A stretch of DNA of 29,235 nt from Bacteroidia bacterium (GCA_026391215.1 JAPLDX010000064.1:1-29235), one strand, 5' to 3'; positions 5,768-20,740 are shown, numbered from the stretch's first letter. The notes: generated by a model not told the origin, from the letters alone. Program-made: numbers and translations.

Positions 5768-6292
5768 TTAGAACACCATCTTACGAACATGCACTTGTTT
5801 TAATGCTCTCAAATCCCTTTCAAGATGTTCGCGCTGTTTTTTGTCACCTGTTAATTCCAGGATAATCAATCCGGCAGATTCTCCGAAAAACATCTCATTG
5901 ACTCCCATGCGTGTCCGGATATAACAGCCATAGATTGTCAATAGCTTCTGGACAGACTTTATCACCTCAGGTTTCTGATCAACCAGGATCCCAAGTATTT
6001 CCATTTCGCCTGCGGCTGATTCCTTTTCAGTCTTTGCTTTACCGCCCGTAAATACCATTTCACGGATCTCAACTCCTCCTATTTCTCCCAGATCTGAAAT
6101 AAGCTTCTTCGAATGTGCGGGATCGCTGCTCAGATGAAGTATGATAATTGCTTCCCTGCTGCATACATTATCCGTGACCTCATGAAATCCCAGGCGGGTT
6201 GTTATTACTCCTGCATGCCTGGAGAGAATCCCCTGGGTAAGACCTGCTTCTTTTATGCGGTCAATGATCTTAATTCCAAGTACTTTAATCAT
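5768..6292 (-). CDS. TM1266-like (iron-only hydrogenase system putative regulator) protein with two tandem ACT-like domains
   Basis: Two homologous halves (VLGIKI..ITTRLGFHEV..IIILHL and ILGILV..IRTRMGVNEM..LIILEL); 5 nt downstream of hydG, a typical context for this family. Confidence 0.7.
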   Translation of the reverse strand: MIKVLGIKIIDRIKEAGLTQGILSRHAGVITTRLGFHEVTDNVCSREAIIILHLSSDPAHSKKLISDLGEIGGVEIREMVFTGGKAKTEKESAAGEMEILGILVDQKPEVIKSVQKLLTIYGCYIRTRMGVNEMFFGESAGLIILELTGDKKQREHLERDLRALKQVHVRKMVF

Positions 6293-6297
6293 ATTGT

Positions 6298-7722
6298 TTA
6301 AAAATATAAATCTCTTTCGCCGTTTTTTATTCTTTCTATCTTCTCCTTCGTATTCTTTGCCACTCCCTCATCAAGCTTGGCCAGGTTCTTTTCAATTACC
6401 TTCCATCCTTTTTCTACAACGGTTCCCTCAGCATAATCACAGATATATTCTGAAAGAGTGAGTATTGCATTGGGTGTGCAGAACCGTTTGATGAATCCAG
6501 GGACAGAAAACTCCATGAAATGCTCACCTGTTCTTCCCATCCTGTAACATGAGGTACAGAACGAAGGCAGATAATCATTTGTCAGCAGTTCATCGATGAC
6601 CTCAGCAAGCGACCTTGGATCATTTATCTTGAATTGCTCACGGTTAAGGTTCTGAGCCTCATTCTTTGATTCAGCATATGATCCCAGCTCCAGTTTTGTA
6701 CCGCCATCTATCTGGGATACACCGTATTGCATAACTTCCCTTCTTACATCCGGAGCCTCTCTGGCTGTTAATATAAGTCCTGTATATGGAACTGCAAGCC
6801 TTAATATGGCTACCAGCTTTTTAAAATCTTCATCGCTTGTCTGGTATTGTCCGTTGATATTCAGGCTTAGAGCGTCTTTAATTCTGGGAAATGATATTGT
6901 ATGCGGACCTACATCATAACATGCCTCAAGGTGATTGGTATGACGGACAAGTCCCAACACCTCAAATCTCCAGTCATAAAGTCCGAAAAGAGCTCCGATC
7001 CCTACATCATCAATACCTGCCTCCTGGGCTCTGTCAAGAGCTGTGACTCTCCATTCATAGTCTCTTTTCTTTCCGCCGAGATGATACCATTTATAAGCCT
7101 CCGGGTGATATGTTTCCTGGAATATCTGATAGGTGCCTATACCTGATTCACCGACAGTTCTGAATCCATCAATATCGAGGGGCGCTGCATTTATATTGAC
7201 CCTTCGTATTTCGCCATGGCCTTTTTTCACACCATAAACTGTCTTGACCGTATGTGCAATATACTCAGGCGAATAGTCGGGATGTTCTCCATATACCAGT
7301 ATTAGCCTCTTCTGCCCGTTATCTTCAAGAGCCTCGACTTCCTTTATTATTTCCTTATCTGTAAGAGTCTTCCTTACAGCACCTTTATTTGAGGTCCTGA
7401 ATCCGCAATACTGGCAATTGTTGGTACATCTGTTTCCTACATATAGCGGTGCAAAAAGCACGATCCTGTTTCCATAAACTTTTTCTTTCAGCTCTTTTGC
7501 TCCCTGTTTGATCTCATCTGCCAGGTCAGTTCCGGCTGAATTAACAAGGATGGCTGTCTCTTTCATTGTCAGCCTCTGTTTATCAAGCGACTTTGAGATA
7601 ACTTCCCTTACCCTCTGCTTGTCAGGTTTTGTGTTGTTAATAAAATCCCATATCTCCTGAGGATCGATGAATGGCTTCATTCGCTGATCAGGGACTTTTA
7701 GTTTTTCAGGCGAGAACCGCAT
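6298..7722 (-). CDS. hydG: [FeFe]-hydrogenase H-cluster maturase HydG (radical SAM)
   Basis: LFAPLYVGNRCTNNCQYCGF, FQETYH, GPHTISFPR and a C-terminal CX2CX22C (CTSC...RFC). Confidence 0.96.
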   Translation of the reverse strand: MRFSPEKLKVPDQRMKPFIDPQEIWDFINNTKPDKQRVREVISKSLDKQRLTMKETAILVNSAGTDLADEIKQGAKELKEKVYGNRIVLFAPLYVGNRCTNNCQYCGFRTSNKGAVRKTLTDKEIIKEVEALEDNGQKRLILVYGEHPDYSPEYIAHTVKTVYGVKKGHGEIRRVNINAAPLDIDGFRTVGESGIGTYQIFQETYHPEAYKWYHLGGKKRDYEWRVTALDRAQEAGIDDVGIGALFGLYDWRFEVLGLVRHTNHLEACYDVGPHTISFPRIKDALSLNINGQYQTSDEDFKKLVAILRLAVPYTGLILTAREAPDVRREVMQYGVSQIDGGTKLELGSYAESKNEAQNLNREQFKINDPRSLAEVIDELLTNDYLPSFCTSCYRMGRTGEHFMEFSVPGFIKRFCTPNAILTLSEYICDYAEGTVVEKGWKVIEKNLAKLDEGVAKNTKEKIERIKNGERDLYF

Positions 7723-7786: not shown

Positions 7787-8698
7787 TCAATATATCAGGT
7801 CTATTATCTCTTCTTTTGCAGAATCAATCCTGGTACGGGTTTTAGGATCTGACAAGCTTAGCGAGCCATGTATCTTCTTATGGAACAACAGGATAGAATC
7901 TTCTCCAACAAAAGCTTCAGGATCTTCAAAAATGTGAACCATCACTTCTGAAGTCCCTTTATTTTCATCCAGGATCAGAATCATTCCTTTTGAGTTAGAG
8001 CTTCCTGAAGTTACAGAAACTGCATATATGCCAGGAGATGGAAGAAGCTTGCACTCCTCGGTTATTGGTATTCTCTTGAATTCCGACAGATCCTGAAAAG
8101 TGTGATTCTCTGGCTTTCCCATAATAATGTAATAGTGATCAAGGTAAGCATTTGCCCTTTGAATATAACCTTCACTTATAGCCTTCCGGATTTTTGTTGA
8201 GCTGACTGTTTCGTGCTGCACTTCCTGTTCCGGAATCTCTTCTGCTTCAAAATTATATTTTGCTCTCCACCCCCAAAGCTGCCTATAATCTCCTTCCTGA
8301 TTGAATCCGAAGTGATGATTAAAGCCTACAACGACAACTCTGGCATGAAGAATATCATGAAGCAATTCCCTAACAAACTGTTCGCTGGTTATCCTTGAGA
8401 ATTCCTTTGTAAACCTGACTATAATTAAATTATCGAGGCCGGCTTTCCTCAGAAGCTCAAGCTTTTCCTCCTGTGAATTGATAAGCTTAAGACCTTTGCC
8501 TGCAGTCTCAGGATAAAGAACTTTTCTCGGATGAGGATCAAAAGTTATCAGGACCGATTCACCATTATTCTTTTCAGCCAGCATCCGCAACCGATTTAGT
8601 ATTGTTTTGTGACCAATGTGGACTCCGTCGAAAGATCCGGTTGTCACAACAGGATTCCTTATCCCTTTTACGTCTTCAAATCCTCTGAAAATCTTCAT
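7787..8698 (-). CDS. ribF: RibF-family FAD synthetase (FMN adenylyltransferase) with degenerate riboflavin-kinase domain
   Basis: GSFDGVHIGH, TFDPHP and VSSTKIR are intact. The C-domain lacks the GRxxGFPTAN, NxGxRPT and IExH motifs. Confidence 0.85.
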   Translation of the reverse strand: MKIFRGFEDVKGIRNPVVTTGSFDGVHIGHKTILNRLRMLAEKNNGESVLITFDPHPRKVLYPETAGKGLKLINSQEEKLELLRKAGLDNLIIVRFTKEFSRITSEQFVRELLHDILHARVVVVGFNHHFGFNQEGDYRQLWGWRAKYNFEAEEIPEQEVQHETVSSTKIRKAISEGYIQRANAYLDHYYIIMGKPENHTFQDLSEFKRIPITEECKLLPSPGIYAVSVTSGSSNSKGMILILDENKGTSEVMVHIFEDPEAFVGEDSILLFHKKIHGSLSLSDPKTRTRIDSAKEEIIDLIY

Positions 8699-8713
8699 GT
8701 TGCAATAAAGATG

Positions 8714-9337
8714 CTAGATAGTGTTCTCCTTTACGAAATATGCCACTTTTTCTATAGAGGTTATCATATCATATTCCTCAAGAAATACCCATGACGGAAC
8801 ATTAAGCGGTATGGTCGTATAATTCAGTATCCCCTTAATTCCGAACCGTACAACCTCTTCCGCGATCTCCTTTGCATAATCAGCAGGCACAGTCAGAATA
8901 GCTATCCGGATATCAAACTCCTTAATTATTTTCTCCATTTCATCGTGGTGAGAGCACCTGACTCCTGAGACCACCTTGCTGACTTTCTGCGGATCGGTAT
9001 CGAATGATGCCACAAGGTTAAGCTGTGATCTCTTTCCCTTGAAATAACCGGCAACTGCCCTTCCAAGGTTTCCTATACCTATGATGGCTACATTAATACT
9101 CTTTGGTGAATCAATAATGTTGCCGATTGTATCAATCAGTTCCTTTATATCATAACCCTTTCTCTGAACTGATGAATAACCTATCAGCATCAGGTCACGC
9201 CTGACCTGCACTGCTGTTATCTGCAGACGTGCAGCCAGATCATGAGAAAAGATGAAATTCTTCTTTTCATTCAGGCACTCAAGCAATGTTCTCCTGTACT
9301 CGCTGAGTCTCTCTACGGTTTTTCCCGGCAGTTTCAT
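8714..9337 (-). CDS. rex: Redox-sensing transcriptional repressor Rex
   Basis: TVERLSEY, QVRRDL and GY wHTH; IGIGNLGRA Rossmann fold; 207 aa. Overlaps the upstream gene by 4 nt. Confidence 0.95.
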   Translation of the reverse strand: MKLPGKTVERLSEYRRTLLECLNEKKNFIFSHDLAARLQITAVQVRRDLMLIGYSSVQRKGYDIKELIDTIGNIIDSPKSINVAIIGIGNLGRAVAGYFKGKRSQLNLVASFDTDPQKVSKVVSGVRCSHHDEMEKIIKEFDIRIAILTVPADYAKEIAEEVVRFGIKGILNYTTIPLNVPSWVFLEEYDMITSIEKVAYFVKENTI

Positions 9338-10479
9338 ATTATTTCAGGTAATGGTTGTGCGTTTTTTGGTAATATGACAATGAATTTAGTACCCACATCA
9401 GGTGTACTTTCCACCTTTATCTCACCATGGTACAATTCGATCACTTTTCTTACAATTGATAATCCGAGACCGCTCCCCGAGATATTCTTTGTCCGTTCGT
9501 TTTTTACCCTCATAAAATCCTTGAACAGGTTCTCTCTGTCTTCCGGAGAGATTCCTATTCCTGTATCGGAGAAAGTCAGAATTACTTCATTATCAGTACT
9601 GTCAATACTGATTTCAGCGTTGCCTCCAAACCTGTTGTACTTGACAGCATTTGATATCAGGTTATTAAAGATAATTTCCATGTCTTCAGGATCAGCCATA
9701 AACAATGAATCGTTCCTGACGTCAAGATTTATGCTCACCTCCATTTGTATGGCATAAGGCTGAACAGTGATTATTGCGTCCTTTGCGACTTCAGCAAGAT
9801 CAACTTTCTGAATCTTCTCATCTTTTCTTTCAAGACGGATCTTGGTGAAATCAAGCAGATCCATTATGAGGTTTCTCATGCCCTGTATCCTCTGAAGGGA
9901 TCTGTCGATCTGATTTGCATAGTCATCAATTTTATCGCCTGCCTGTTTCTCATGCATCATCCTGAGGTATCCTTCCAGTGCATTTAATGGAGCTTTCAGC
10001 TCATGTGAAAGAACTGAAAGAAACTGAGACCTGATCTTTTTCCCGTCCTCGGCCAGTTTATTAGTGACTTTTTTAAGGTAAAGCTGCTTGGATATGTTTT
10101 CAACGCTTGACTTAAGCTCCTGTGGTGTGAATGGCTTGGGAATAAAATCTGTTGCGCCATCCCTGGTAGCCTTGATGGCCACATCCAGAGATGCATAGGA
10201 TGTGATCATGGCAGTCGCTATATCATATTTCTTTTCCCGTATATACTCCAGCACCTCTACACCCTGCATCCCGGGTAATTTATTATCAAGAAGAAGTATA
10301 TCTGGTTTGTCTTTGTCAATGATGCTGATCCCTTCCTCTCCTGAAGCGGCAGTCATCACTTCAAATGTATAATCCTCATCCATGAAAGGATATGTAACAT
10401 GGAAGTTTCCCAGTATCCTGGTTACACCCGACCTTATCCCTGGTTCATCATCAATAACAAGCACCTTTAAAACAGCCAT
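9334..10479 (-). CDS. Hybrid receiver-histidine kinase (REC-HisKA-HATPase), cytoplasmic, no sensor domain
   Basis: VIDDE, LLDNKLP, FIPKPF; H-box SHELKAPL; N-box NLISNAVKY; DTGIGI; GSGLGL. Confidence 0.93.
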   Translation of the reverse strand: MAVLKVLVIDDEPGIRSGVTRILGNFHVTYPFMDEDYTFEVMTAASGEEGISIIDKDKPDILLLDNKLPGMQGVEVLEYIREKKYDIATAMITSYASLDVAIKATRDGATDFIPKPFTPQELKSSVENISKQLYLKKVTNKLAEDGKKIRSQFLSVLSHELKAPLNALEGYLRMMHEKQAGDKIDDYANQIDRSLQRIQGMRNLIMDLLDFTKIRLERKDEKIQKVDLAEVAKDAIITVQPYAIQMEVSINLDVRNDSLFMADPEDMEIIFNNLISNAVKYNRFGGNAEISIDSTDNEVILTFSDTGIGISPEDRENLFKDFMRVKNERTKNISGSGLGLSIVRKVIELYHGEIKVESTPDVGTKFIVILPKNAQPLPEII

Positions 10480-10480
10480 G

Positions 10481-10876
10481 TCAGATCTTTAATAGTTTCA
10501 TTATTTCCTGGTCGAGCTGTTCAGCCCTGATACCTTTCTCAAGATACCTGTCAGCCCTTATCCATGATTTTTCCATCCCGGAGTCAAGGCTGAAGGACAT
10601 TCCTGTCTCGCGCGATACTGCAGTTGCAAGGATCACCGGCACATCCGGATACAATTTCTTGATCTTGTAACACAGTATAAATCCGCTGTCATCGGTTTCC
10701 ATCATAAGATCAAATATCGCCAGGTCGGGCTTAAACTTAGTTATTATTGATTCCGCCTCTGCCTGGCTCTCCGCCGTAATTGTCTTATAGCCTGCCTTTC
10801 CCAGGTTAAACACCGTCTGGAAAAGATAATCAGGATCATCATCGGCCACCAAAATCGTGTAATCGCTCTTCTTCAT
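10481..10876 (-). CDS. Single-domain response regulator (receiver only)
   Basis: VADDD, IFDLMM (phospho-Asp), LATA, LEKG; 131 aa with no output domain. Confidence 0.9.
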   Translation of the reverse strand: MKKSDYTILVADDDPDYLFQTVFNLGKAGYKTITAESQAEAESIITKFKPDLAIFDLMMETDDSGFILCYKIKKLYPDVPVILATAVSRETGMSFSLDSGMEKSWIRADRYLEKGIRAEQLDQEIMKLLKI

Positions 10877-10933
10877 TGTATTGCAAATATCTGATAATTC
10901 ATTTTACTTATTCTGATCTGTAAATTACTTAAT

Positions 10934-10999
10934 GTCATGCAAGTCGTGCAAGTCGTGCAAGTCGTGCAAGTCGTGCAGGTCGAACAAGGTTTGCATGAC
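10934..10999. repeat. 9-bp tandem repeat (6 units, GTCRTGCAA) closed by an inverted copy
   Basis: gtcatgcaa, 3x gtcgtgcaa, gtcgtgcag, gtcgaacaa (10934-10987); ttgcatgac at 10991-10999 is the reverse complement of unit 1. Confidence 0.9.
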
Positions 11000-11000
11000 C

Positions 11001-12962
11001 TTATTCTTTTCTTCTTGGCAACACAATCTTAAAACTCGTTCCTGTCTTCCCTTTTGCCGGATCCGTATTGGACTCGACAGTTATCTGTCCTTTATGCATC
11101 TTCACAACACCATAGGCCGTAGCCAGTCCCAGTCCGGTGCCAAATCCCACGCCCTTGGTCGTGAAGAATGGTTCAAACATCTTAGCCTTATCCTTTTCTT
11201 TAATACCTGTACCTGAATCACTTACAGTAATGATTACATCGCTCAGGGTATCTTCGAGCAATATATTTATTTCTCCCCCTCCAGGCATTGCTTCAAATGC
11301 ATTCTTAACAAGATTATTAAGCACCTGCATCATCTGTTCCAGATCGAGCATTGCTTCAGGATTGGTTGTTTTATCGATAATTTTTATACTCACATTGTCA
11401 GGAACGATCAGGCTCTCCAGGCTTTGATTTACCATTTCCCTGATATTTACCAGCTGATGGTTAACCTGGTTTTTCCTGGCAAAATTCAGCAGTCCTGCCA
11501 CAATTTTCTTGCAACGCCCTGCCTGCTCCACAATTAGTCTCAGATCTTCCCTGACGGGATCACCGTCCTTACTTTCATCCAGTAAAATATTGCTATACAT
11601 GATAACTACCCCCAGAGGATTATTGAGCTCATGAGCAATACCTGCAGAAAGCTGGCCCATGTGTGCAAGCTTCTCAGATTGTTTAAGAGCCTGCTTCATT
11701 TCTCTGAGTTTCTCATTGGAGAGTGCAAGGTCGTTGACTGATCTATGGAGTTTTTCAATGGTATATGGAAGGCACATCTCCACTTCAGCAAGTCCTTTTT
11801 TTATGGCAACCGCATGTTCAACACAGCTTTCATAGCCGCATGCACCACAGTCAAGCTGATCTTTTTTTGTAATCTTGCCCATCGATATAAGCACCTCTTC
11901 AACATCTTGTTCTTCCAATACCAGTACCCGGTGATCATCAGCTTTATGATGAACCGAAAGATCGATGGAAGAAAACTCATTGAATGCCTGCTGCCAGGCA
12001 TTATGGTCTTCTTGCTGCATCTTGCCATTTGCATAGCTGCTGATCAGAGTTCTCCTGTTGTACTGTTTCCCGTTTTTTGAAAGACCCGGCCCCATAATGC
12101 ATCCTTCACAGCAAAGAAGCTCCACATGCTGTTTCTTTATAAGTCCTGCTTCAAACTCTTTCAGCGCCTCCTGGAAATCGATCCTTCCTTCAGCGGCAAT
12201 AATATTTCCAGTTATTGCGTCGTCGTTTATATTTGCAGCCTGCAACAGTCCCCTCGTGACAGGGAATATTGCTCCTCGCCGGCCGGCCGGAGGATCAAAA
12301 TCTGAAGGCTGGCTGTTTGCAGCAGAAATACCCAGGTTTGAGAAGAGTTCTCTCAATTCAACAAAGGTGATTGCCTCATCCACCTCACTGCTCTCAGCTT
12401 TTTTTGCAACACACGGACCGATGAAAACTACTTTTGTATCCTTTCCGTATTTTTCATGCATAACCTTGCTCATGGCAACCATTGGCGATACAACAGGAAT
12501 CAGGTTATCAGCAAGTCCGGGATGGTAGAATTTTACATAATTGACTATTGACGGACAATCAGATGAAATGTAGTATTCTTTACTTTCAGCTATAAGCTTT
12601 TTGTATTTTTCAGCAACAAGATCAGCTCCAAAAGAGACTTCAGATACGTATTTAAAGCCAATTGATCTTATCATTCCAACCAAAGATCTGTGATCACGGA
12701 TATCGTAAAACTCTGCGGGGAAACTTGGTGCCAGTATTGCAGCAACTTTTGGTTCATTTTTAATCAGGGTCAATACCCTATCGGTCGTATGAAGAAACAC
12801 TTTTGCACCCTGGCTGCAGACTTTTGTGCAGTTGCCGCAGGCAATGCATCTCTCATCTATCACCTCAGCCTGTCCTCCGACTATACGGATAGCCTTGGCA
12901 GGGCATTCCCTGACGCAGGTGTAGCATGTTCGGCAAAGTTCCTTTATTGTATATACCAGCAT
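11001..12962 (-). CDS. Sensory [FeFe]-hydrogenase-like domain fused to histidine kinase (group C type)
   Basis: Two CxxCxxCxxxC motifs, LAPSF, SSDCP, GPCVAKKAE, CCEGCIMGPG, FeS domain DCGACGYESC, coiled coil, AHELNNP, NLVKNA, DSGTGI, PFFTTK, GTGLGL. Confidence 0.9.
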   Translation of the reverse strand: MLVYTIKELCRTCYTCVRECPAKAIRIVGGQAEVIDERCIACGNCTKVCSQGAKVFLHTTDRVLTLIKNEPKVAAILAPSFPAEFYDIRDHRSLVGMIRSIGFKYVSEVSFGADLVAEKYKKLIAESKEYYISSDCPSIVNYVKFYHPGLADNLIPVVSPMVAMSKVMHEKYGKDTKVVFIGPCVAKKAESSEVDEAITFVELRELFSNLGISAANSQPSDFDPPAGRRGAIFPVTRGLLQAANINDDAITGNIIAAEGRIDFQEALKEFEAGLIKKQHVELLCCEGCIMGPGLSKNGKQYNRRTLISSYANGKMQQEDHNAWQQAFNEFSSIDLSVHHKADDHRVLVLEEQDVEEVLISMGKITKKDQLDCGACGYESCVEHAVAIKKGLAEVEMCLPYTIEKLHRSVNDLALSNEKLREMKQALKQSEKLAHMGQLSAGIAHELNNPLGVVIMYSNILLDESKDGDPVREDLRLIVEQAGRCKKIVAGLLNFARKNQVNHQLVNIREMVNQSLESLIVPDNVSIKIIDKTTNPEAMLDLEQMMQVLNNLVKNAFEAMPGGGEINILLEDTLSDVIITVSDSGTGIKEKDKAKMFEPFFTTKGVGFGTGLGLATAYGVVKMHKGQITVESNTDPAKGKTGTSFKIVLPRRKE

Positions 12963-12968
12963 ATCTTT

Positions 12969-14690
12969 TTATAAAAGAACATTTCTCTTCTCAAAATGAG
13001 TATAAAAGATCTTCTTATCTGATATCTCCTTGTTTTCCTTAATTAGCTTTTCATACAGGTTTCGAAGCACCGGTGATTTGCAGGGTAGGCTGACAGCATC
13101 CGATTCATCAGCCTGGTAGATCATTTTAGCCCTGCTCTTCTTTTCATCCTTTGATCCGTTGAATGTAAGACCGGCTCCGTTAATGCATCCTCCGGGACAG
13201 GTCATGACCTCGATAAGGTCATATCTCTTCCCTGCAGCCTGTGATGCTTTCAGTTTTTCAAGCCCTTTCAGTCCATCTACAACTGCGACATTGATTTCAA
13301 TCTCTCCAATGCTGAATGAGGCTTCCCTGAATGAGTTGCCTGACCGTAGTTTTTTGAACAACTGTCTCTCAGCTTCAGTTTTTGATATCCTGAACCAGGC
13401 TGATCTTATCACTCCCTCTGCCAGTCCACCTGATACTTCAGCTATTGCAGATACGGAGCTTCTTCCTTCCATTGGCTCGTCAGCCGGTTCCTGGTCAGCA
13501 TTTGTGACGTCAATCCCATATAGCCTGATAAGCCTTGCAAGCTCCCTTATTGTGAGGACTGCATCAACATCGCTGATCCCCTTCCTCATCATTCCATCAC
13601 GCCGTGCTTCAAATTTCATTGCAGTGCATGGTGTGACAGAAACAGAAAATATTTTTTCAGGTTTGACTGCTGATTGTCCGGCAACCAGAGTTTTTATTAG
13701 CACGCCCGTTATCTGCTGTGGTGATTTTATTGTTGACAGATCAGGGATTACCGAAGGCATAAACTGTTCTGCATATTTAACCCAGGCAGGGCAGGCTGTA
13801 ATATATAAAGGCTTATCTGCCTTATTTTCAATTCTCTCCATAAGCTGATCTGTAAGCTCGGATATACAGATATCAGTTCCTGTGCCGGTGTTAAAGACCT
13901 TATCGAATCCGATCTTCCTCAATACTGAATTAATGATCCTGTCAAAATCCCTGTTGTACCTGATGCCCAATTCTTCGGCAATCCCCACAGGGACAAGAGG
14001 TGAATACTGTATAACCTTAAGTATCTCCGGTTTGTTCAGGTATTCCTGTACTTCAGTAATATTGTGCTTCTCATGCAGTGCTGCCGTAGGACAAACAACA
14101 ACGCACTGTCCGCAGTGAATGCAGCTCGAGAAATTAAAGTCACGGTCCATAGCTGGCCCGACATGTGTTGACTTGCCTTTATTGATAAAGTCGATAGATG
14201 TGGAAGTGATTATTTCCTCGCATACCCTTATACACCTGCCGCATAATATACATTTTGAAAGCTCCCTGACTATTGCCGGGCTTGACTGATCGAGGCGTGG
14301 TTTGATCTTTTTTGAACGTATTCGTCTCTCACTTATGTTAAGTTCTTCTGCAAGCCGCTGCAGCTCACAATCAAGGTTTCGGTCGCAGTAAAGGCAGTCA
14401 TCAGGATGGTTTGAAAGAAGAAGCTCAACTATAGTTTTTCTTGCAGTAATAACTCTTGGTGAATGCGTCTTGATCTTCATCCATTCCTCTACAGGCTGTG
14501 AACAGGCAGTGACCAGTCTGTCGCGGCCTTCAACCTCCACAACACACATCCTGCAGGCGCCGGTAGGTGTAAAATCCTTCATCCGGCAAAGGGTTGGAAT
14601 GATGATCCCGTTGCGGTTAAGTGCCGAAAGGATAGTTTCTCCTTTTTCAGCTCTGATCTTTTTATTATTTACCTGTATTGTAAAAACCAT
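12969..14690 (-). CDS. hydA: HydA/HndD-like subunit of trimeric NADH-linked [FeFe]-hydrogenase with degenerate H-cluster pocket
   Basis: The 2Fe-2S, His-ligated 4Fe-4S (HPDDCLYC..C) and 2x4Fe-4S motifs are intact. H-domain motifs read ITACPAW, TPCTAMKFE and EVMTCPGGCINGAG. Confidence 0.85.
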   Translation of the reverse strand: MVFTIQVNNKKIRAEKGETILSALNRNGIIIPTLCRMKDFTPTGACRMCVVEVEGRDRLVTACSQPVEEWMKIKTHSPRVITARKTIVELLLSNHPDDCLYCDRNLDCELQRLAEELNISERRIRSKKIKPRLDQSSPAIVRELSKCILCGRCIRVCEEIITSTSIDFINKGKSTHVGPAMDRDFNFSSCIHCGQCVVVCPTAALHEKHNITEVQEYLNKPEILKVIQYSPLVPVGIAEELGIRYNRDFDRIINSVLRKIGFDKVFNTGTGTDICISELTDQLMERIENKADKPLYITACPAWVKYAEQFMPSVIPDLSTIKSPQQITGVLIKTLVAGQSAVKPEKIFSVSVTPCTAMKFEARRDGMMRKGISDVDAVLTIRELARLIRLYGIDVTNADQEPADEPMEGRSSVSAIAEVSGGLAEGVIRSAWFRISKTEAERQLFKKLRSGNSFREASFSIGEIEINVAVVDGLKGLEKLKASQAAGKRYDLIEVMTCPGGCINGAGLTFNGSKDEKKSRAKMIYQADESDAVSLPCKSPVLRNLYEKLIKENKEISDKKIFYTHFEKRNVLL

Positions 14691-14695
14691 GGCCG

Positions 14696-16630
14696 CTATT
14701 TGACTGTTATCGCGCTGAACTTACAAATATCAAAGCATATCCCGCATCCTGTACATTTCTCTTCGACAATGAAAAACGGCTGCAGCCTGGTCCCGTAAAT
14801 TGCATTGACAGGACATTTTGATGCACATGCCGTGCACCCTGTACATTTGTCGACATCTATTGAAAATGTTCTCAGGCCTCTGCAGATATTTGCCCTGCAT
14901 TTTCTGTCAAAAATATGTTCCTCGAATTCCTCCCTGAAATTCTTCAGTGCACTAAGGAAAGGATTTGGAGCGGTCTGTCCCAGTCCGCATAGCGATGTAT
15001 CCTTCATTACTGAGGCAATGCTCTCCAGCTGCATTACACCTTTAAAGCGTTCGAGGGTGGTTCCTGAATCCTCATTCAGGGGTTTCTTTATTATACTTTC
15101 AAGTATCTCAAGCATTCTTCCTGTTCCTTCACGGCAGGGAATGCATTTTCCGCAGCTCTCATTACGCATGAATTCCATATAGTACCTTACCAGGTCGACC
15201 ATGCATGTATTTTCATCTATAATGACAAATCCGCCTGCACCCATGCCAATACCCTTTGCCTTCATGACATCAAAATCGATAGTCATATCCAGGTTATCAC
15301 GAGTGATGAACGAACCGGATACGCCTCCCACCTGGATGGCCTTGAATTCTTTTCCTTCCTTTATACCGTCTGCTATGTCTTCAAGTATTGTTCGTACTGA
15401 GGTTCCCATTTCAACTTCCACCACTCCCGACATGCGTCCTTTTCCTGCTATTGCAAAAATTTTTGTTCCGGGACTGTTCTCAGTACCTAGAGTGCGGAAC
15501 CATTCAGGACCATTCTGCATAATCACCGGCACATTCATAAGAGTCTCCACATTATTTATCACAGTCGGTTTGCTGAATAATCCTGATGTTGTCGGGAATG
15601 GAGGTTTAAGCTGGGGCATTCCCCTTCTGCCTTCAATGGTGTTGATCAGTGCTGTTTCCTCTCCGCAAACAAAAGCGCCTGGTTCCTTTCGAATTACAAT
15701 ATCCAGATTGTAACCGCTTGAAAATATGTTATGTCCGAGAAGTCCGAATTCTCTTGCCTTGTTAATGGCAAGCTGAATTATTTGCCTGGCATGCTCTGAT
15801 CCTTTCCTGAAGAATATAATTGCATTTGAAGCTCCTATGGCGTAAGATGCTATGGCTATACCTTCGATAAGCCTGAAAGGATCGCTTTCAAGAAGTGTCC
15901 TGTCGGTAAATGCTCCGGGATCACTCTCTTTAGCGTTGCATATCAGGTAACGGGAAGTTGAGCTGGTATTAAGCGCCTGTTTCCATTTAAGGCCTGTAAG
16001 ATAGCCTCCTCCGCTCCTTCCTCGCAGCCCGCTTCTCTCAATAATATCACATACTTCTTCAAAAGTATAGTGTCGTATAGCTTTAGCAAATGCCCGGAAT
16101 CCGTTACGGGCTATGTATTCAACAATGCTCTCAGGATCATAGCATCCGCAATTATTCATTACGATCTTCTTTTGCCGGGCGAAAAAAGGCATCTCTTCAA
16201 TAAAAGGTATTCCCGACCACATCTCAAATCCGTGGCTCCCTTGCTGTCCTGCAAGGTCATCTTCATTGATATCATTATGAAAAACGCCATTCAGCAGCAG
16301 CTCAACTTTTTCTTCTGTAATATTTCTGAAATAAAGCTTGTTTTTACCAGGAAGATGGATGCAGACCAGGGGTTCAAAGTTAGCAGGACCGAGGCAGCCA
16401 ACTTTTATCAAACTGGCTTTCAAAGCATTATCATCAATATATGCTTGTATTACTGACCTTGTTTTTTCATATCCGGCAATTATGCTGCTTGTTCCGGAAG
16501 ATATATAGATGACAGGAAATCCTGTTTTCTCACGCCTCACCTCCTGAAGAACCTTTTCAGTTTCTGCAGGCAAGGTGTCTGATTCGAACAGGAGTACCTT
16601 CTCAATCATGAATTTCTTCAAATCATCCAT
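14696..16630 (-). CDS. hydB: HydB/NuoF-like flavoprotein subunit (divergent)
   Basis: GLRGRSGGG, FVCGEETAL, NNVETL, ESCGKCIPCREG, SLCGLGQTAPNP and C-terminal 2x4Fe-4S. Confidence 0.88.
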   Translation of the reverse strand: MDDLKKFMIEKVLLFESDTLPAETEKVLQEVRREKTGFPVIYISSGTSSIIAGYEKTRSVIQAYIDDNALKASLIKVGCLGPANFEPLVCIHLPGKNKLYFRNITEEKVELLLNGVFHNDINEDDLAGQQGSHGFEMWSGIPFIEEMPFFARQKKIVMNNCGCYDPESIVEYIARNGFRAFAKAIRHYTFEEVCDIIERSGLRGRSGGGYLTGLKWKQALNTSSTSRYLICNAKESDPGAFTDRTLLESDPFRLIEGIAIASYAIGASNAIIFFRKGSEHARQIIQLAINKAREFGLLGHNIFSSGYNLDIVIRKEPGAFVCGEETALINTIEGRRGMPQLKPPFPTTSGLFSKPTVINNVETLMNVPVIMQNGPEWFRTLGTENSPGTKIFAIAGKGRMSGVVEVEMGTSVRTILEDIADGIKEGKEFKAIQVGGVSGSFITRDNLDMTIDFDVMKAKGIGMGAGGFVIIDENTCMVDLVRYYMEFMRNESCGKCIPCREGTGRMLEILESIIKKPLNEDSGTTLERFKGVMQLESIASVMKDTSLCGLGQTAPNPFLSALKNFREEFEEHIFDRKCRANICRGLRTFSIDVDKCTGCTACASKCPVNAIYGTRLQPFFIVEEKCTGCGICFDICKFSAITVK

Positions 16631-17110
16631 CTATTCATTTTCAATTATATACCTGAGCTTCTTAATGAGCTCCGGCAACTGATCTGCTTTAATATGTGTG
16701 TGATACTCCCCGTTGACGCTTATTACCGGACCATGATTACAGCCCCCCATGCATGTTTCAATTTCATAGCTGAAAATTCCGTCCCTGCCCGTCTGCCCCG
16801 GATCCAGCCCGGTTTCTTCCATGATCTTATTGATGACATACTGTGATCCATTAAGGAAGCATGATGTGCCGTTGCAAATTTTAATCTGAACTTTTCCTGC
16901 AGGTAAAAATCTGAACTGATCATAAAAGGTTGCAAGCCCGTAGATCTTTGTAGTGCTCAATCCCACAAAGCTGCCTGCCCTGATAATAGCCTCCTCAGAT
17001 AAATAACCACTGTCATCCTGTATCTCCTGGAGCATTGGAATAAGATCCTCCCTTCTGCCAGGTTTGTACTTTTTAAGTATTAAATCGATCTTTGTACTCA
17101 TCAGTACCAT
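16631..17110 (-). CDS. hydC: HydC/NuoE-like 2Fe-2S subunit (start at 17110 or 17101 rather than 17137)
   Basis: LIPMLQEIQ, IYGLATFY, CNGTSC...CMGGC. A promoter element at 17125-17132 lies inside the longer ORF-track call. Confidence 0.88.
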   Translation of the reverse strand: MVLMSTKIDLILKKYKPGRREDLIPMLQEIQDDSGYLSEEAIIRAGSFVGLSTTKIYGLATFYDQFRFLPAGKVQIKICNGTSCFLNGSQYVINKIMEETGLDPGQTGRDGIFSYEIETCMGGCNHGPVISVNGEYHTHIKADQLPELIKKLRYIIENE

Positions 17111-17124
17111 AGAAATATAATACA

Positions 17125-17132
17125 CAAATATA
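17125..17132 (-). promoter_or_regulatory. Bacteroidota -7 promoter element for the hydCBA operon
   Basis: Minus-strand TATATTTG matches TAnnTTTG. Confidence 0.65.
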
Positions 17133-17141
17133 TTCAATTTA

Positions 17142-17159
17142 TTGTTATAAAATAAACAT
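17142..17159. promoter_or_regulatory. Degenerate second Rex-like operator
   Basis: TTGTTAT-AAAA-TAAACAT, overlapping the perfect site by one base. Confidence 0.45.
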
Positions 17160-17176
17160 TGTTAATTTATTAACAA
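17159..17176. promoter_or_regulatory. Rex operator (perfect palindrome)
   Basis: TTGTTAA-TTTA-TTAACAA matches the TTGTTAA-N4-TTAACAA Rex box; rex lies in the downstream operon. Confidence 0.8.
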
Positions 17177-17352
17177 TAAAATATTAAAAAATAGTATTGT
17201 TATTGAACAAGCTATTTAATTGTAAAACAGCCCGTTACTGAAATATAGACAAAATAATGCCTAATAATTTGCCTCATTCACACTTGACGTCATCTATTTA
17301 ATTCTATGAATTTTACGTCCTCCAGGCATGATTGCCGCATGAAAATAATTAC

Positions 17353-17360
17353 TACTTTTG
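17353..17360 (+). promoter_or_regulatory. Bacteroidota -7 promoter element for the hfs-like operon
   Basis: TACTTTTG matches TAnnTTTG, about 31 nt upstream of the ATG at 17392. Confidence 0.65.
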
Positions 17361-17366
17361 AGGTTG

Positions 17367-17384
17367 TTGTTTATTTATAAACAG
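17367..17384. promoter_or_regulatory. Rex-like operator over the predicted start site of the hfs-like operon
   Basis: TTGTTTA-TTTA-TAAACAG: 7-4-7 near-palindrome with the same TTTA spacer as the perfect site. Confidence 0.65.
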
Positions 17385-17391
17385 TAAAGAG

Positions 17392-17646
17392 ATGACCAGG
17401 GAAGTCGAAATGCACATCTGTCTGGGCAGTTCCTGCTTTTCAAGGGGCAATAAGGAAGTTGTAATGTTCATCAGGGATTACCTGAAGAAGAACCATCTTG
17501 AAGACAAGGTTATTTTCAAAGGGGCCAGGTGCATGGGAAATTGCAGCAAGGGTCCTAACCTCAGGATTGATGACAGGATTGAAGAGGAAGTCACTATTGC
17601 AAGAATTGAAGAGATCCTTGAACGGGAATTGGCCAGATTGAAATAA
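17392..17646 (+). CDS. Thioredoxin-like [2Fe-2S] ferredoxin (HfsA-like)
   Basis: ICLGSSCF...CMGNCSKGP; 84 aa; precedes the PAS hydrogenase. Confidence 0.88.
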   Translation: MTREVEMHICLGSSCFSRGNKEVVMFIRDYLKKNHLEDKVIFKGARCMGNCSKGPNLRIDDRIEEEVTIARIEEILERELARLK

Positions 17647-17664
17647 CGTAATACAGGGACGAGA

Positions 17665-19545
17665 ATGAGCAAAACAAAGCCTGTTTTATATATAAATGAT
17701 TCCAAATGCAGGAATTCATATTCATGTGTCCGGGTATGTCCGGTAAACGCGATTGAGGTTAAGACACAGAAGCCCCATCCCACAATTATTCCGGAAAGAT
17801 GTATCGGGTGCGGATTATGCTATATTTCCTGCTCACCGCGTGCCATTGAATTCCGGGATTCAAAGGAAGAGGTCAGGGCATTACTTTCCTCTGACAGAAA
17901 AAAGGTAGCCCTGATTGAGCCAAGTATTGCGTCTGAATTTGACGATATTACCGACTACAGAAAATTCGTGGCAATGATCCGCACACTGGGATTTGATTAT
18001 GTGCATGAGGTTTCATTTGGCGTAGATCTGATCGCATCAAAATATGCCGATCTTTTCAGCACCTCGGAAGGCAAGTATTATATTACTGCCAACTGCCCTT
18101 CAATAGTCAAGCTCATAGAAAAATTCCATCCGGAACTGGTTCCTAATCTTGCTCCCCTTATTTCGCCAATGATTGCAACTGCAATGGTAGTCAGGAAGTT
18201 ATACGGACCTGAATCAGCTGTTATCCAGATCGGGCCATGTATAGATGCAAAAGATGAGGTGATGCTGTATGAATCCGGAAAGCTTATTGACGGAGTTCTT
18301 ACCTTCATTGAATTACGCCAGCTTTTTGATGAATCCGGGATACAGGAGAAGCTTGTTAAAATGTCGGAGTTCGATCCCCCGTTCGGATACTGGGGCGCTC
18401 TCTATCCGGTGCCGGCTGGAATAATACAGGCAGGAGGAATTAAGCGCGATATGGTATCCAGCAAGGTGATCACCGCATCAGGCAAGGAGGATATACTTGA
18501 AGCCATTAATGATTACGATAAATTCATTGACACCATACATCACCACTTTAACCTTTTCTTCTGTCACGGATGCCTTCTGGGTCCGGGAATGGAGCAGCAG
18601 AGGGAAAGGTTCAGGAGAAGAGCCCTTGTAAGCCGTTATACTGAAAAAAGGATTGGCACCCTCGATAAAGAGCTTTGGCAGAAGAACATGGACAAATGGC
18701 TAAAACTTGATTTTTCCAGAGGCTTCAAACCTGATGACCAGAGGATCCCTGAACCGCCTCCTGAAGCAATCAATGAAGTTCTGAAGATAGTCGGGAAACA
18801 GGATCCTGACGATGAGCTTGATTGCGGAGCATGCGGATATATGTCATGCCATGATTTTGCCTCCACAGTCGCCAAAGGGCTTGCCATTCCGGAAATGTGC
18901 CATACCTTTAACCTCCGGAACAAACAGGAGTATATTGAAACCCTAAGGCAGACAAACAGGAAGCTGGCCGAGACAAAAAAAGCTTTGAAAGAATCAGAGG
19001 AGATTGCGCTGAGGGAGAAAGAGATCGCACAGAGCGCTTCCGACATGATGAACAACATGCTCGAAAAACTTCCGATAGGTGTTGTGATTGTAGATAACAA
19101 CCTGAAAATACTTCATTCAAACCTGAGCTTTATTAATATTATCGGAGAGGATGCCAGGGCAATTTCGGAAGTTATACCGGGACTAGCCGGAGCGGATATT
19201 AAAACGCTTATCCCTTTCAATATTTATAACATGTTCACCTTTGTCATCAAAGAAAATGAACCTGTTGTAAGCAAGGATGTCCACCTGGAGGACAGAATGC
19301 TCAATATTTCGATCTTCCCCATCAAGAAAAATAAGATGTGCGGTGCCGTGATAAGGGATCTCTATTCTCCTGAAGTACAGGGAGAAGAGGTGACAAACCG
19401 GGTCAGCGAGGTAATTGAGAAGAACCTGGAGATGGTTCAGAAAATAGGTTTCCTTCTTGGCGAGGGAGCATCCGAAACAGAACAGATGCTTAACTCTATA
19501 ATTGAATCATACAAGAAAAGGGCCGATAAAAAAAACGGCATATAA
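17665..19545 (+). CDS. PAS-domain sensory [FeFe]-hydrogenase-like protein (HydS/HfsB-like)
   Basis: N-terminal ferredoxin motifs, TANCP, GPCIDAKDE, FCHGCLLGPG, DCGACGYMSC, coiled coil, PAS-like LPIGVVIVDNNLKILHSN. Confidence 0.88.
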   Translation: MSKTKPVLYINDSKCRNSYSCVRVCPVNAIEVKTQKPHPTIIPERCIGCGLCYISCSPRAIEFRDSKEEVRALLSSDRKKVALIEPSIASEFDDITDYRKFVAMIRTLGFDYVHEVSFGVDLIASKYADLFSTSEGKYYITANCPSIVKLIEKFHPELVPNLAPLISPMIATAMVVRKLYGPESAVIQIGPCIDAKDEVMLYESGKLIDGVLTFIELRQLFDESGIQEKLVKMSEFDPPFGYWGALYPVPAGIIQAGGIKRDMVSSKVITASGKEDILEAINDYDKFIDTIHHHFNLFFCHGCLLGPGMEQQRERFRRRALVSRYTEKRIGTLDKELWQKNMDKWLKLDFSRGFKPDDQRIPEPPPEAINEVLKIVGKQDPDDELDCGACGYMSCHDFASTVAKGLAIPEMCHTFNLRNKQEYIETLRQTNRKLAETKKALKESEEIALREKEIAQSASDMMNNMLEKLPIGVVIVDNNLKILHSNLSFINIIGEDARAISEVIPGLAGADIKTLIPFNIYNMFTFVIKENEPVVSKDVHLEDRMLNISIFPIKKNKMCGAVIRDLYSPEVQGEEVTNRVSEVIEKNLEMVQKIGFLLGEGASETEQMLNSIIESYKKRADKKNGI

Positions 19546-19555
19546 CAAGCATTAA

Positions 19556-20740
19556 TTGAAAAAGGACTTTTATATAGAAGTAAACAGCCATCAGAGAAAC
19601 CACGATGGAGAGAGAATCTCCGGTGACGTATTTCTTTACAGGTATATAAAGGAAGAGGACAGAGTAATTGCGGTACTATCGGATGGCATGGGTCATGGTG
19701 TAAAGGCAAATATACTTGCTACCCTGACGTCGACAATGGCCCTTAATTTCACAAGCGAACATAAGGAAGTTGACCGGATTGCGGAAATAATTATGAATAC
19801 CCTCCCTGTCTGCAGCGAACGGAAAATAAGCTATTCAACATTTACAATTATTGATATAGACAGCAGCGGACGGGTAAATATCCTCGAATATGATAATCCT
19901 CCGACAATAGTCCTTAGAGGCAACCAGCAATTTGATCCATCATGGAAGAAAGTAGTTCTTGAAAAGGGCAAGCACTCAGGTAAAATACTGAAAACCTGCA
20001 CGTTCATGCCGGAAAAAGAAGACAGAATAGTAGTCTGCTCCGATGGAGTGGCTCAGAGCGGAATGGGCAGTGAGGCTTTCCCGTTTGGCTGGGAAAGGGA
20101 TAATGTAGCTACCTATGCTGCCGCTCTTGTAAACAGCGAAGCATCGATTTCGGCTGTTATGCTTGCAGGGAAGATTGTCTCCATGGCTCATAAGAACGAT
20201 GCATACAAGGCAAAAGATGATATAAGCTGTGCAATAATCTACTTTCGTGATCCACGTAAATTGCTGATATGCACAGGTCCCCCCTATGAAAAGGACAAGG
20301 ATAAGGAGCTTGCCGCAAAAGTGAAGGATTATAAGGGAAAAGTTATCCTGTGCGGAGGCACGACAGCAGATATATTGGCCAGGGAGCTGAACAGAAAAAT
20401 TGTAGACGAGCTGATATTTGAAGATCCTGAGCTGCCGCCCGAAAGTTTCCTTGAAGGTATTGACCTTGTTACTGAAGGAATACTGACCCTGCAAAAGGTA
20501 AATGAGATACTTAAGACCTACAACAACAGCACCAGGCTTGGAAAAGGTCCTGCCGACAAGATAGTTAAGCTGCTGATGGAAAGTGATGAGATACATTTTA
20601 TCATCGGGACCCGTATCAACATTGCCCATCAGGATCCGAACCTTCCGGTTGAACTGGAAATACGAAGGACCGTGGTAAAACGTATTGCAAGGCTTCTTGA
20701 GGAAAAATGGCTCAAGAACGTAACCTTTGAATATATTTAA
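19556..20740 (+). CDS. SpoIIE/PP2C-family Ser/Thr phosphatase (HfsC-like), TTG start
   Basis: SGDVF, LSDGMGHG, YSTFTI, CSDGV, DDIS and a C-terminal CGGTTA/LVTEGILTL domain typical of hydS-associated phosphatases. Confidence 0.9.
   Translation: MKKDFYIEVNSHQRNHDGERISGDVFLYRYIKEEDRVIAVLSDGMGHGVKANILATLTSTMALNFTSEHKEVDRIAEIIMNTLPVCSERKISYSTFTIIDIDSSGRVNILEYDNPPTIVLRGNQQFDPSWKKVVLEKGKHSGKILKTCTFMPEKEDRIVVCSDGVAQSGMGSEAFPFGWERDNVATYAAALVNSEASISAVMLAGKIVSMAHKNDAYKAKDDISCAIIYFRDPRKLLICTGPPYEKDKDKELAAKVKDYKGKVILCGGTTADILARELNRKIVDELIFEDPELPPESFLEGIDLVTEGILTLQKVNEILKTYNNSTRLGKGPADKIVKLLMESDEIHFIIGTRINIAHQDPNLPVELEIRRTVVKRIARLLEEKWLKNVTFEYI

Follow-up and report, generated by a model that had tools for sequence, protein, structure and literature searches.

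A widespread Bacteroidales hydrogenase island whose HydABC has lost residues linked to catalysis in one derived clade

Gene content of the island

The window, a 29,235-nucleotide (nt) stretch from a Bacteroidia bacterium (GCA_026391215.1, JAPLDX010000064.1:1-29235), carries at positions 7,787 to 20,740 an island in which genes for an [FeFe]-hydrogenase-like HydABC stand beside genes for two further H-domain proteins, a phosphorelay, the repressor Rex, and a phosphatase (Table 1). The window holds one lineage's version of an old and widespread Bacteroidales hydrogenase-plus-regulators island. The HydABC of this island is ordinarily canonical, and its HydA and HydB have lost catalysis-linked residues in genomes that also bear a canonical HydABC of the type encoded on contig C117 of the same genome (C117 type, below). 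In the window's family, a HydA pocket with A299, T353, M358, A417, and E418 is fixed under strong purifying selection.

The open reading frames and the Pfam and NCBIfam matches agree on one tight minus-strand operon in the order hydC-hydB-hydA-[H-domain kinase]-REC-[REC-kinase]-rex-ribF (REC, receiver domain), with successive gaps from hydC to ribF of 0, 5, 6, 124, 1, -4 (an overlap), and 15 nt. Within the 124-nt gap, a 9-nt unit is repeated in tandem about five times. Plus-strand genes for a 2Fe-2S protein, an H-domain protein (hydS-PAS), and a PP2C-type phosphatase diverge from this operon. A first-pass annotation made from the sequence alone had described the same operon, the same spacing (15 nt or less apart from one repeat-bearing gap), and the same divergent arm, and these descriptions stand, as does its view of the island as a regulatory hub: Rex, a His/Asp relay, and the PP2C arm are all present. 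Its "PAS-hydrogenase" is an H-domain protein as stated, but the PAS match is weak (PAS_10, E=0.0033, 18.5 bits, below the cut-off of 22.1).

The ribF gene is syntenic in most orthologous loci. The spacer between the kinase and REC genes is not conserved, ranging from 4 to 561 nt among 66 orthologous loci, and a tandem repeat of at least three copies occurs in only 11 of them. No Pfam family was found for the C-terminal 166 amino acids (aa) of the PP2C protein (residues 229-394).

Table 1. Features of the island and its flanks (window coordinates; NAD, nicotinamide adenine dinucleotide; FMN, flavin mononucleotide)
Feature	Position	Strand	Evidence or remark
ribF: riboflavin kinase/FAD synthetase	7787-8698	-	Pfam PF06574
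rex: NADH/NAD+-sensing repressor	8714-9337	-	Pfam; NCBIfam NF003995, 200.7 bits (cut-off 126)
REC-HisKA-HATPase hybrid kinase, 381 aa	9334-10479	-	Pfam
Stand-alone receiver (REC), 131 aa	10481-10876	-	Pfam PF00072
Kinase-REC spacer, 124 nt, 9-nt tandem repeat	10877-11000	-	Sequence
hydS-HK: 2x[4Fe-4S] + H-domain + Cx2Cx4Cx16C + HisKA/HATPase, 653 aa	11001-12962	-	Pfam
hydA: M3-type [FeFe]-hydrogenase-like subunit, 573 aa	12969-14690	-	Pfam; alignment to 8a6t_A, 7q4v_A, CpI
hydB: NuoF-like FMN/NADH subunit + C-terminal 2x[4Fe-4S], 644 aa	14696-16630	-	Pfam; PDB HydB-type chains
hydC: NuoE-like thioredoxin-type [2Fe-2S] subunit, 168 aa	16631-17137	-	Pfam PF01257, E=3e-40
Rex-type box, 3 mismatches, abuts the perfect box	17142-17159		Pattern scan
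Perfect Rex-type operator TTGTTAATTTATTAACAA	17159-17176		TTGTTAA-N4-TTAACAA pattern; 22 nt upstream of hydC
Degenerate palindromic Rex-like box, 3 mismatches	17367-17384		Just upstream of the 2Fe-2S gene; weak alone
HfsA-like small thioredoxin-type [2Fe-2S] protein, 84 aa	17392-17646	+	Pfam PF01257, E=3e-10
hydS-PAS: 2x[4Fe-4S] + H-domain + Cx2Cx4C..C cluster + weak PAS, 626 aa	17665-19545	+	Pfam
PP2C/SpoIIE-type phosphatase	19556-20740	+	Pfam PF07228
hydG: H-cluster maturase	6298-7722	-	NCBIfam TIGR03955, 491 bits (cut-off 312)
TM1266/CPF_0552-like putative hydrogenase-system regulator	5768-6292	-	Pfam PF21699; NCBIfam NF052672, 134 bits (85)
hydE: H-cluster maturase	4607-5728	+	NCBIfam TIGR03956, 348 bits (cut-off 254.6)
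Acyl-CoA synthetase-like protein, ADP-forming	2394-4466	-	CoA_binding_2 + Succ_CoA_lig + ATP-grasp_5
Class I/II aminotransferase	1016-2341	-	
2-oxoacid:ferredoxin oxidoreductase, N-terminal part	3-779	-	POR_N
Sensor protein, 1093 aa	24718-27999	-	Reg_prop/Y_Y_Y repeats + C-terminal SpoIIE/PP2C

The HydA pocket resembles that of sensory hydrogenases

We aligned the window HydA to the solved HydA1 of T. kivui (8a6t_A, E=8e-125), to A. woodii HydA1, and to CpI, whose residue numbering is used throughout. The M3 domain order is intact, with a 2Fe-2S domain, a NuoG-type 4Fe-4S domain, a 2x4Fe-4S domain, the H-domain, and a small-subunit-like tail (Pfam and the full-length alignment to 8a6t_A). Within the H-domain, the L1 motif reads ITACPAW where the canonical form is TSCCPxW, and L2 reads TPCTAMKFE where the canonical form is MPCxxKKxE; L3 (EVMTCPGGC) is kept. 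The underlying changes are E279 to L, E282 to Q, C299 to A, M353 to T, K358 to M, F417 to A, and G418 to E. We take K358 to be the hydrogen-bond partner of the distal CN ligand. The residues C300, C355, C499, C503, S319, P324, Q325, and M497 are retained, and the H-cluster cysteines among them (C300, C355, C499, and C503) are present in all 121 island HydAs that we compared, the window included. The window HydA scores below the curated cut-offs of both hydrogenase models, NF040763 (group A6; 578.2 against 765 bits) and TIGR02512 (group A; 352.2 against 405.95 bits). Alignment and motif counts bear out the first-pass claim that none of the three H-domain proteins of the island has the canonical TSCCP/MPCxxKKxE set.

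A parallel for this pocket is found in the group C/D sensory hydrogenases (TmHydS, TamHydS). In these enzymes, position 299 is often Ala, position 353 is Gly, Ser, or Thr, and E279, E282, and S319 are altered or missing (PMC10055695, PMC8163306). They bind the H-cluster yet are slow (PMC10055695, PMC8163306, PMC10407848). The window HydA has this sensory-type pattern (A299, L279, Q282, T353): like group C/D enzymes it lacks Cys299 and the group A path and has a small or hydroxyl residue at 353 (PMC10055695, PMC8163306). Group C/D enzymes are marked by an M2-type N-terminus, a C-terminal Cx2Cx4Cx16C cluster, and a PAS or signalling domain, and the window HydA differs from them in having the M3 architecture with HydB and HydC partners and no C-terminal four-Cys cluster, PAS, or kinase domain in Pfam searches, and in lacking K358, which the sensory enzymes conserve (PMC10055695).

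HydB, HydC, and the two H-domain sensors

HydB matches the HydB-type chains of bifurcating enzymes in the PDB with E=4e-168, and its changes concern two sites. Alignment to orthologues and to the genome's own paralogues shows that two cysteines of the N-terminal [2Fe-2S] site are missing. The flavin pocket reads GRSGGGYLTG against GRGGAGFPTG in relatives, and CNAKESDPG against CNADEGDPG, such that the Asp of the NADE motif is Lys. The motifs ESCGKCIPCREG and SLCGLGQ are retained in HydB/HydC, and the Cys positions of HydC are kept among orthologues. A BC core of the Bfu type, a family described in PMC9304861, is thus present, with a NuoF-like FMN domain carrying 4Fe-4S, a C-terminal 2x[4Fe-4S] domain, and a NuoE-like [2Fe-2S] subunit (Pfam). 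Across island loci, the HydB changes accompany those in HydA: many derived loci lack the N-terminal cysteines, and variation is also seen at the Asp of NADE, with the exchange to Lys and the GRSGGGY loop limited to the window's family clade.

The two remaining H-domain proteins are of the same kind as group C/D enzymes. The kinase has SSDCP and GPCVAKK motifs (D299 and G353, with K358 kept) and the group C/D architecture, in which Cx2Cx4Cx16C is followed by HisKA/HATPase; the phospho-accepting H444 and cysteines C372, C375, C380, and C397 are invariant columns in its alignment. The hydS-PAS protein has TANCP and GPCIDAK motifs (N299, G353), which are conserved across 66 rows, and likewise has the group C/D architecture, with a weak PAS domain. 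The hydA and kinase genes are 6 nt apart, and their adjacency is conserved among loci. Co-folding of HydA with kinase residues 1-420, each from its own alignment (A2 and A3), gave a score of 0.01 and a mark of 0.32, which weighs neither for nor against an interaction.

Conservation and selection among close orthologues

A scan of species-representative genomes gave 421 relatives, of which the best 80 loci form a close set (81 rows with the window). All come from metagenome bins of uncultured Bacteroidales/Bacteroidota, several of them labelled as fen or lake sediment, and their HydAs are 75-92% identical. The whole gene order is kept in nearly all of the loci that reach far enough. The island proteins are 75-92% identical in these loci, against 45-70% for the flanking genes.

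The altered pocket is a stable state. Position 299 is Ala in 75 of the 81 rows, Val in four, Thr in one, and Ser in one, and it is never Cys; position 353 is Thr (75 rows) or Ser (six rows). Met at 358 occurs in 81 of 81 rows and Glu at 418 in 80, and the four ligand cysteines are present in every row. Hardly any variation is seen at the [2Fe]-facing residues Q325, M497, and P324 or at M358 and E418, which are new. Around the H-cluster, 72% of 25 positions are invariant compared to 35.5% of H-domain columns, on a position list that was partly drawn from the CpI structure and includes the cluster ligands.

The HydA frame is open and full length in all 80 close loci. Ratios of nonsynonymous to synonymous substitution rates (dN/dS) are 0.040 for HydA, 0.033 for HydB, 0.052 for HydC, and 0.033 for the maturase HydG, as pairwise NG86 estimates from pairs of at least 88% aa identity in which dS is about 1 and near saturation. 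This amounts to strong purifying selection. With a low dN/dS, and with stronger conservation in the pocket than elsewhere in the H-domain, the derived state cannot be called decay. Lineage-specific decay, which the first-pass annotation had named as an alternative, is ruled out by dN/dS of 0.03-0.05 together with the pocket conservation.

Distribution, phylogeny, and redundancy

Of 301 genomes sampled evenly across the order's families, 208 have a HydA-like match at E<=1e-60. We fetched the best 120 places, which score from 977 down to 439 bits; at least four possible island copies lie lower in the list (G032, G261, G018, and G173). In 20 loci of other families with 20-kilobase (kb) context, the order is again hydC-hydB-hydA-kinase-REC-REC-kinase-rex-ribF, mostly with the PP2C arm, and the island gene order also occurs on metagenome contigs.

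The island HydA is fully canonical (E279, E282, C299, M353, K358) in 58 of the 120 places. It retains C299 with other changes in 30, has C299D in eight, and has another residue at 299 in 24 (S in ten, N in five, L, A, and H in two each, and V, E, and Y in one each), a class with R, K, A, G, or S at position 358. NCBIfam scores drop stepwise along this series: canonical island HydAs reach 833-760 bits, a C299D type 752, and the most diverged forms 692-559. As canonical forms make up 58 of the 120, the odd state is the derived one. Canonical motifs in syntenic orthologues are what the first-pass annotation had expected if its reading were wrong, and formally these 58 sampled Bacteroidales genomes speak against that reading.

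A FastTree phylogeny of 121 island HydAs (the 120 and the window), rooted on the two canonical paralogues of the window's genome, places the island family in one clade (support 100) that holds a canonical grade and a single derived clade. The derived clade comprises 66 rows (SH-like support 100), namely all 63 non-canonical HydAs (62 fetched and the window) and three canonical ones. Within it, C299 loss requires at least 17 changes on the tree.

Both H-domains that the window's genome encodes elsewhere, out of five in total, belong to canonical HydABC sets, found in a search for canonical hydABC outside the island. The set on contig C117 has a HydB of 597 aa and a HydA with TSCCPGW and MPCLAKKYE; the set on contig C98 has a HydB of 386 aa and a HydA with TSCSPGW and MPCTAKKYE, an L1 form that the alignment also shows in the active A. 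woodii HydA1. Both HydAs pass NF040763 (893 and 904 bits against 765) and score 527-531 bits with TIGR02512. The maturases HydE and HydG adjoin the island, and HydF is encoded on contig C109. The C98 HydB (L006, 8039-9199) has neither the N-terminal domain nor the C-terminal 2x[4Fe-4S] domain, and from its sequence the C98 enzyme may be a non-bifurcating NADH-linked hydrogenase. Among relatives of the same genus, G125 matches the window's genome in its set of five H-domains; in G245 (98% complete), one H-domain of the C98 type was present, and the island and a C117-type enzyme were not found.

Divergence of the island HydA goes together with the C117-type enzyme. A C117-type HydA (E<=1e-200, 64-86% identical) occurs in 61 of the 63 genomes with a non-canonical island HydA versus three of the 58 with a canonical one, and these three are the three canonical rows within the derived clade. 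In 25 genomes the island HydA is the sole M3-type HydA, and 24 of these HydAs are canonical, on a table that scored no more than four candidates for each genome. In four loci of other families (L094, L173, L185, and L187), the PP2C gene is immediately followed by a canonical C117-type hydB-hydA-hydC operon with TSCCP and MPC(L/V)AKK(Y/F)E motifs.

HydA-like proteins that depart from the canonical motifs also occur in the protein library that we searched. There, 61 of the 116 full-length proteins placed in a tree (drawn from the best 150 representatives) do not match the canonical L1/L2/ligand pattern. C299 and K358 are missing, and the four cysteines kept, in about 30 clusters of M3-type HydA-like proteins from unknown organisms (P0010-P0037 and others). 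Two library proteins (P0083 and P0124) lack the ligand cysteines and, judging by this, may be HylA-like. The top-scoring entry, P0007, is a giant multi-H-domain protein of 4122 residues with seven H-domain-matching stretches.

Putative Rex operators

We took TTGTTAA-N4-TTAACAA, known from clostridial Rex work, as the Rex consensus. Three boxes in 29 kb are about the number expected by chance (2.68), yet all three lie inside the 254-nt divergent spacer. The perfect pattern occurs at only two places in the 3.39-megabase genome, and sites with at most one mismatch number 13 genome-wide, against two for a control pattern. Each of the 66 orthologous spacers contains a box with at most two mismatches, and none of the 66 contains the control pattern. 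The alternative form TTGTGAA-N6-TTCACAA was not found in the spacer, and its matches outside the spacer are at chance level only.

The first-pass annotation had placed Rex boxes at both promoters. The perfect box before hydC agrees with this; the side facing the 2Fe-2S gene has a three-mismatch box that is weak alone. With a Rex protein above its model cut-off and a conserved putative operator before hydC, the island has the predicted features of a Rex regulon. On contig C117, two adjacent Rex-like boxes with two and three mismatches (L007, 6396-6430) lie about 80-110 nt before the hydB-hydA-hydC operon. Upstream of the C98 operon, no Rex-like box was found.

Functional interpretation

We favour, with a probability of about 0.5, the reading that the window HydABC is a retuned, low-turnover, sensor-grade paralogue beside its own regulators, and that the two canonical HydABC sets on C117 and C98 would do the bulk of H2 turnover. 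The ancestral island would have been an ordinary electron-bifurcating HydABC operon together with an H-cluster histidine kinase, a REC/REC-kinase relay, Rex, and RibF, often facing a divergent 2Fe-2S/PAS-hydrogenase/PP2C arm. In the derived clade, found alongside a separate canonical C117-type HydABC, the group A proton pathway and residues of the second sphere are gone from HydA, and HydB is without its N-terminal [2Fe-2S] ligands and has an altered flavin pocket. HydA probably still binds the H-cluster and probably turns over slowly, as do the group C/D sensory hydrogenases that carry similar substitutions. Because those enzymes share such changes, bind the cluster, and are slow, the complex may well be a low-flux, regulatory, or redox-poising enzyme that is co-expressed with the sensors. 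Rex made from the island would repress the island, and probably the C117 operon too, until NADH rises.

Several observations weigh against this reading. With Met in place of K358, the [2Fe] subcluster might not bind; the new conserved Glu at position 418 could equally be part of a rewired proton path in a fully working enzyme. The link between divergence and redundancy traces to one clade and is thus one evolutionary event and not independent evidence, and a test of non-canonical HydA against presence of a further HydA on independent pairs gave p=1, on only four pairs. The tree was built by FastTree only, and the composition of the pocket list noted above tempers the conservation contrast.

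A fully working bifurcating or confurcating isoenzyme, with a proton path rewired through, e.g., Glu418, with changed affinity, bias, or tolerance, and produced on Rex derepression, is the alternative that we take most seriously, though we think it rather unlikely. It would account for the retention of all cluster ligands, for the strong conservation of the pocket in its new state (dN/dS 0.04), and for the adjacent maturases, and there is a precedent in TamHydS, which lacks the group A pathway and interconverts H+ and H2 by an alternative Glu-based path (PMC8163306, PMC10407848). However, the Glu of TamHydS (E252) corresponds to CpI V423, where the window has Leu; we placed it from the primers and text of PMC10407848, as no solved sensory HydS was found by sequence. 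The loss of K358, the slowness of the characterised enzymes with such pockets, and the near restriction of divergence to genomes where a canonical HydABC co-exists also speak against a working isoenzyme, and the replacing residues at 299 and 358 differ by family, which looks like relaxed and not redirected constraint.

The first-pass annotation had read the HydABC as pseudo-enzymatic, a redox antenna or wire that evolves no H2 and reports NAD(H)/ferredoxin state to the kinase. On this reading, HydA would be left with iron-sulfur clusters only, the [2Fe] subcluster being gone as in the HylA of HylABC, and the complex would be a Bfu-type NADH/ferredoxin module handing electrons or redox information on to the adjacent H-domain kinase. 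Its premise holds in that HydA and HydB lack residues needed for fast group A catalysis. The changes of K358 to Met, C299 to Ala, and F417 to Ala are compatible with such a wire, as are the HydA scores below both curated cut-offs (578 bits where 765 are required, and 352 where 406 are); an H-cluster-free HydA-like scaffold is known in HylA (PMC6085437), and the kinase gene lies only 6 nt away, an adjacency that is conserved. That adjacency is identical in islands with a fully canonical HydA, and it therefore says nothing specific about a wire. HylA, as far as PMC6085437 describes it, lacks L1-L3 conservation, whereas the window HydA keeps all four cysteines, and near-invariant [2Fe]-facing positions are unexpected for an empty cavity. 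The conserved pocket thus argues for a cofactor still bound there rather than for a non-H2 wire, which we regard as improbable. Decay of the HydABC into a relic after a newer hydrogenase took over is the least credible account, and we consider it very improbable. The long branches in the derived clade, the 64 sampled genomes that have a C117-type enzyme and no island HydA among the 120 fetched, and the missing island in G245 would suit it, but dN/dS is 0.03-0.05 in all three subunits, HydA is open at full length in every close locus, the island retains its identity while the flanks have diverged, and the pocket is fixed.

A bolder reading is one that we consider improbable: HydABC could act as a three-input redox comparator whose state is read through the C-terminal [4Fe-4S] of the kinase. 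The slow H-cluster, the retuned flavin, and the iron-sulfur (Fe-S) chain would equilibrate with H2, NADH/NAD+, and ferredoxin, and the kinase would read out the result by electron exchange or contact. If so, the cell would sense the driving force for confurcating H2 production and not H2 alone, and the series of island variants would record a group A catalytic hydrogenase turning into a sensor.

Comparison with known systems

The HydABC enzymes of group A3/'A6' (T. kivui, A. woodii, T. maritima) have the same three subunits and domain order as the island; the island HydA aligns end to end with 8a6t_A and has all the Fe-S and H-cluster cysteines. It differs from them in lacking the C299 relay, E279, E282, M353, and K358, and the island HydB in lacking the N-terminal [2Fe-2S] cysteines and in the NADE Asp-to-Lys exchange.

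The first-pass annotation had put the island forward as a candidate new system, possibly undescribed. We found otherwise: the same gene order spans many Bacteroidales families and metagenome contigs, and HydABC beside group C PAS/kinase hydrogenases is in print for Hydrogenedentota (PMC11406978). There, BfuABC with 'BfuT' (sub-types IV and V) places an A3 HydABC next to C3 hydrogenases with PAS/histidine-kinase domains; according to the main text of that paper, the BfuA motifs are generally conserved (xTSCxPxW, MPCxAKK), in contrast to those of the window HydA. The regulatory neighbours of sensory hydrogenases have also been described (PMC8163306, PMC8924675).

HfsABC(D) of Thermoanaerobacterium and HydS of Ruminococcus albus, compared by description, similarly bring together a small Fe-S protein, a PAS-type hydrogenase, and PP2C. 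The R. albus HydS gene cluster reportedly includes Rex and a kinase/phosphatase. Those hosts are Firmicutes, and the Bacteroidales island adds a His/Asp relay and a diverged HydABC; a sensory role of TsHfsB and RaHydS is cited in PMC8924675. In HylABC, a HydA homologue that is not a hydrogenase still sits in a HydBC-type complex, that of formate dehydrogenase, and PMC6085437 describes HylA as lacking L1-L3 conservation; the window HydA keeps four cysteines and most of L3. We reject a HylA-like identity of the window HydA on the grounds of the four ligand cysteines and the retained EVMxCxGGC.

None of the openly available main texts that we searched describes an island of this kind whose group A3-type HydA has a sensory-like pocket. 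A group A3 catalytic subunit of B. thetaiotaomicron with low activity and minimal transcription (PMC12578642) may be relevant, should it belong to the island family.

The main value of these observations is the catalytic-to-sensor-like HydA series, together with a caution for hydrogenase surveys. One syntenic HydA provides a natural series from the canonical form through loss of E279 and C299D to loss of both C299 and K358. With this series one can ask what second-sphere residues determine turnover, bias, and H2 affinity, and how sensory hydrogenases may arise from catalytic ones. The caution concerns names: in public records these proteins appear as 'iron-only hydrogenase group A' or under generic domain names. 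A survey based on homology would probably take them for bifurcating enzymes that produce H2, and hydrogenase counts from such bins may overstate H2-evolving capacity. The island also links hydrogenase genes with Rex (NADH), two H-cluster sensors, a His/Asp relay, and a PP2C arm, in a phylum, that of the Bacteroidales, where hydrogenase regulation is little studied.

Neighbouring genes

Beside hydE lie genes for the N-terminal part of a 2-oxoacid:ferredoxin oxidoreductase, for a class I/II aminotransferase, and for an ADP-forming acyl-CoA synthetase-like protein. By its annotation, this gene set looks like one for amino-acid/2-oxoacid fermentation, which would yield reduced ferredoxin. On the other flank, 4 kb off the island, the 1093-aa protein with sensor repeats is a second PP2C-type signalling protein.

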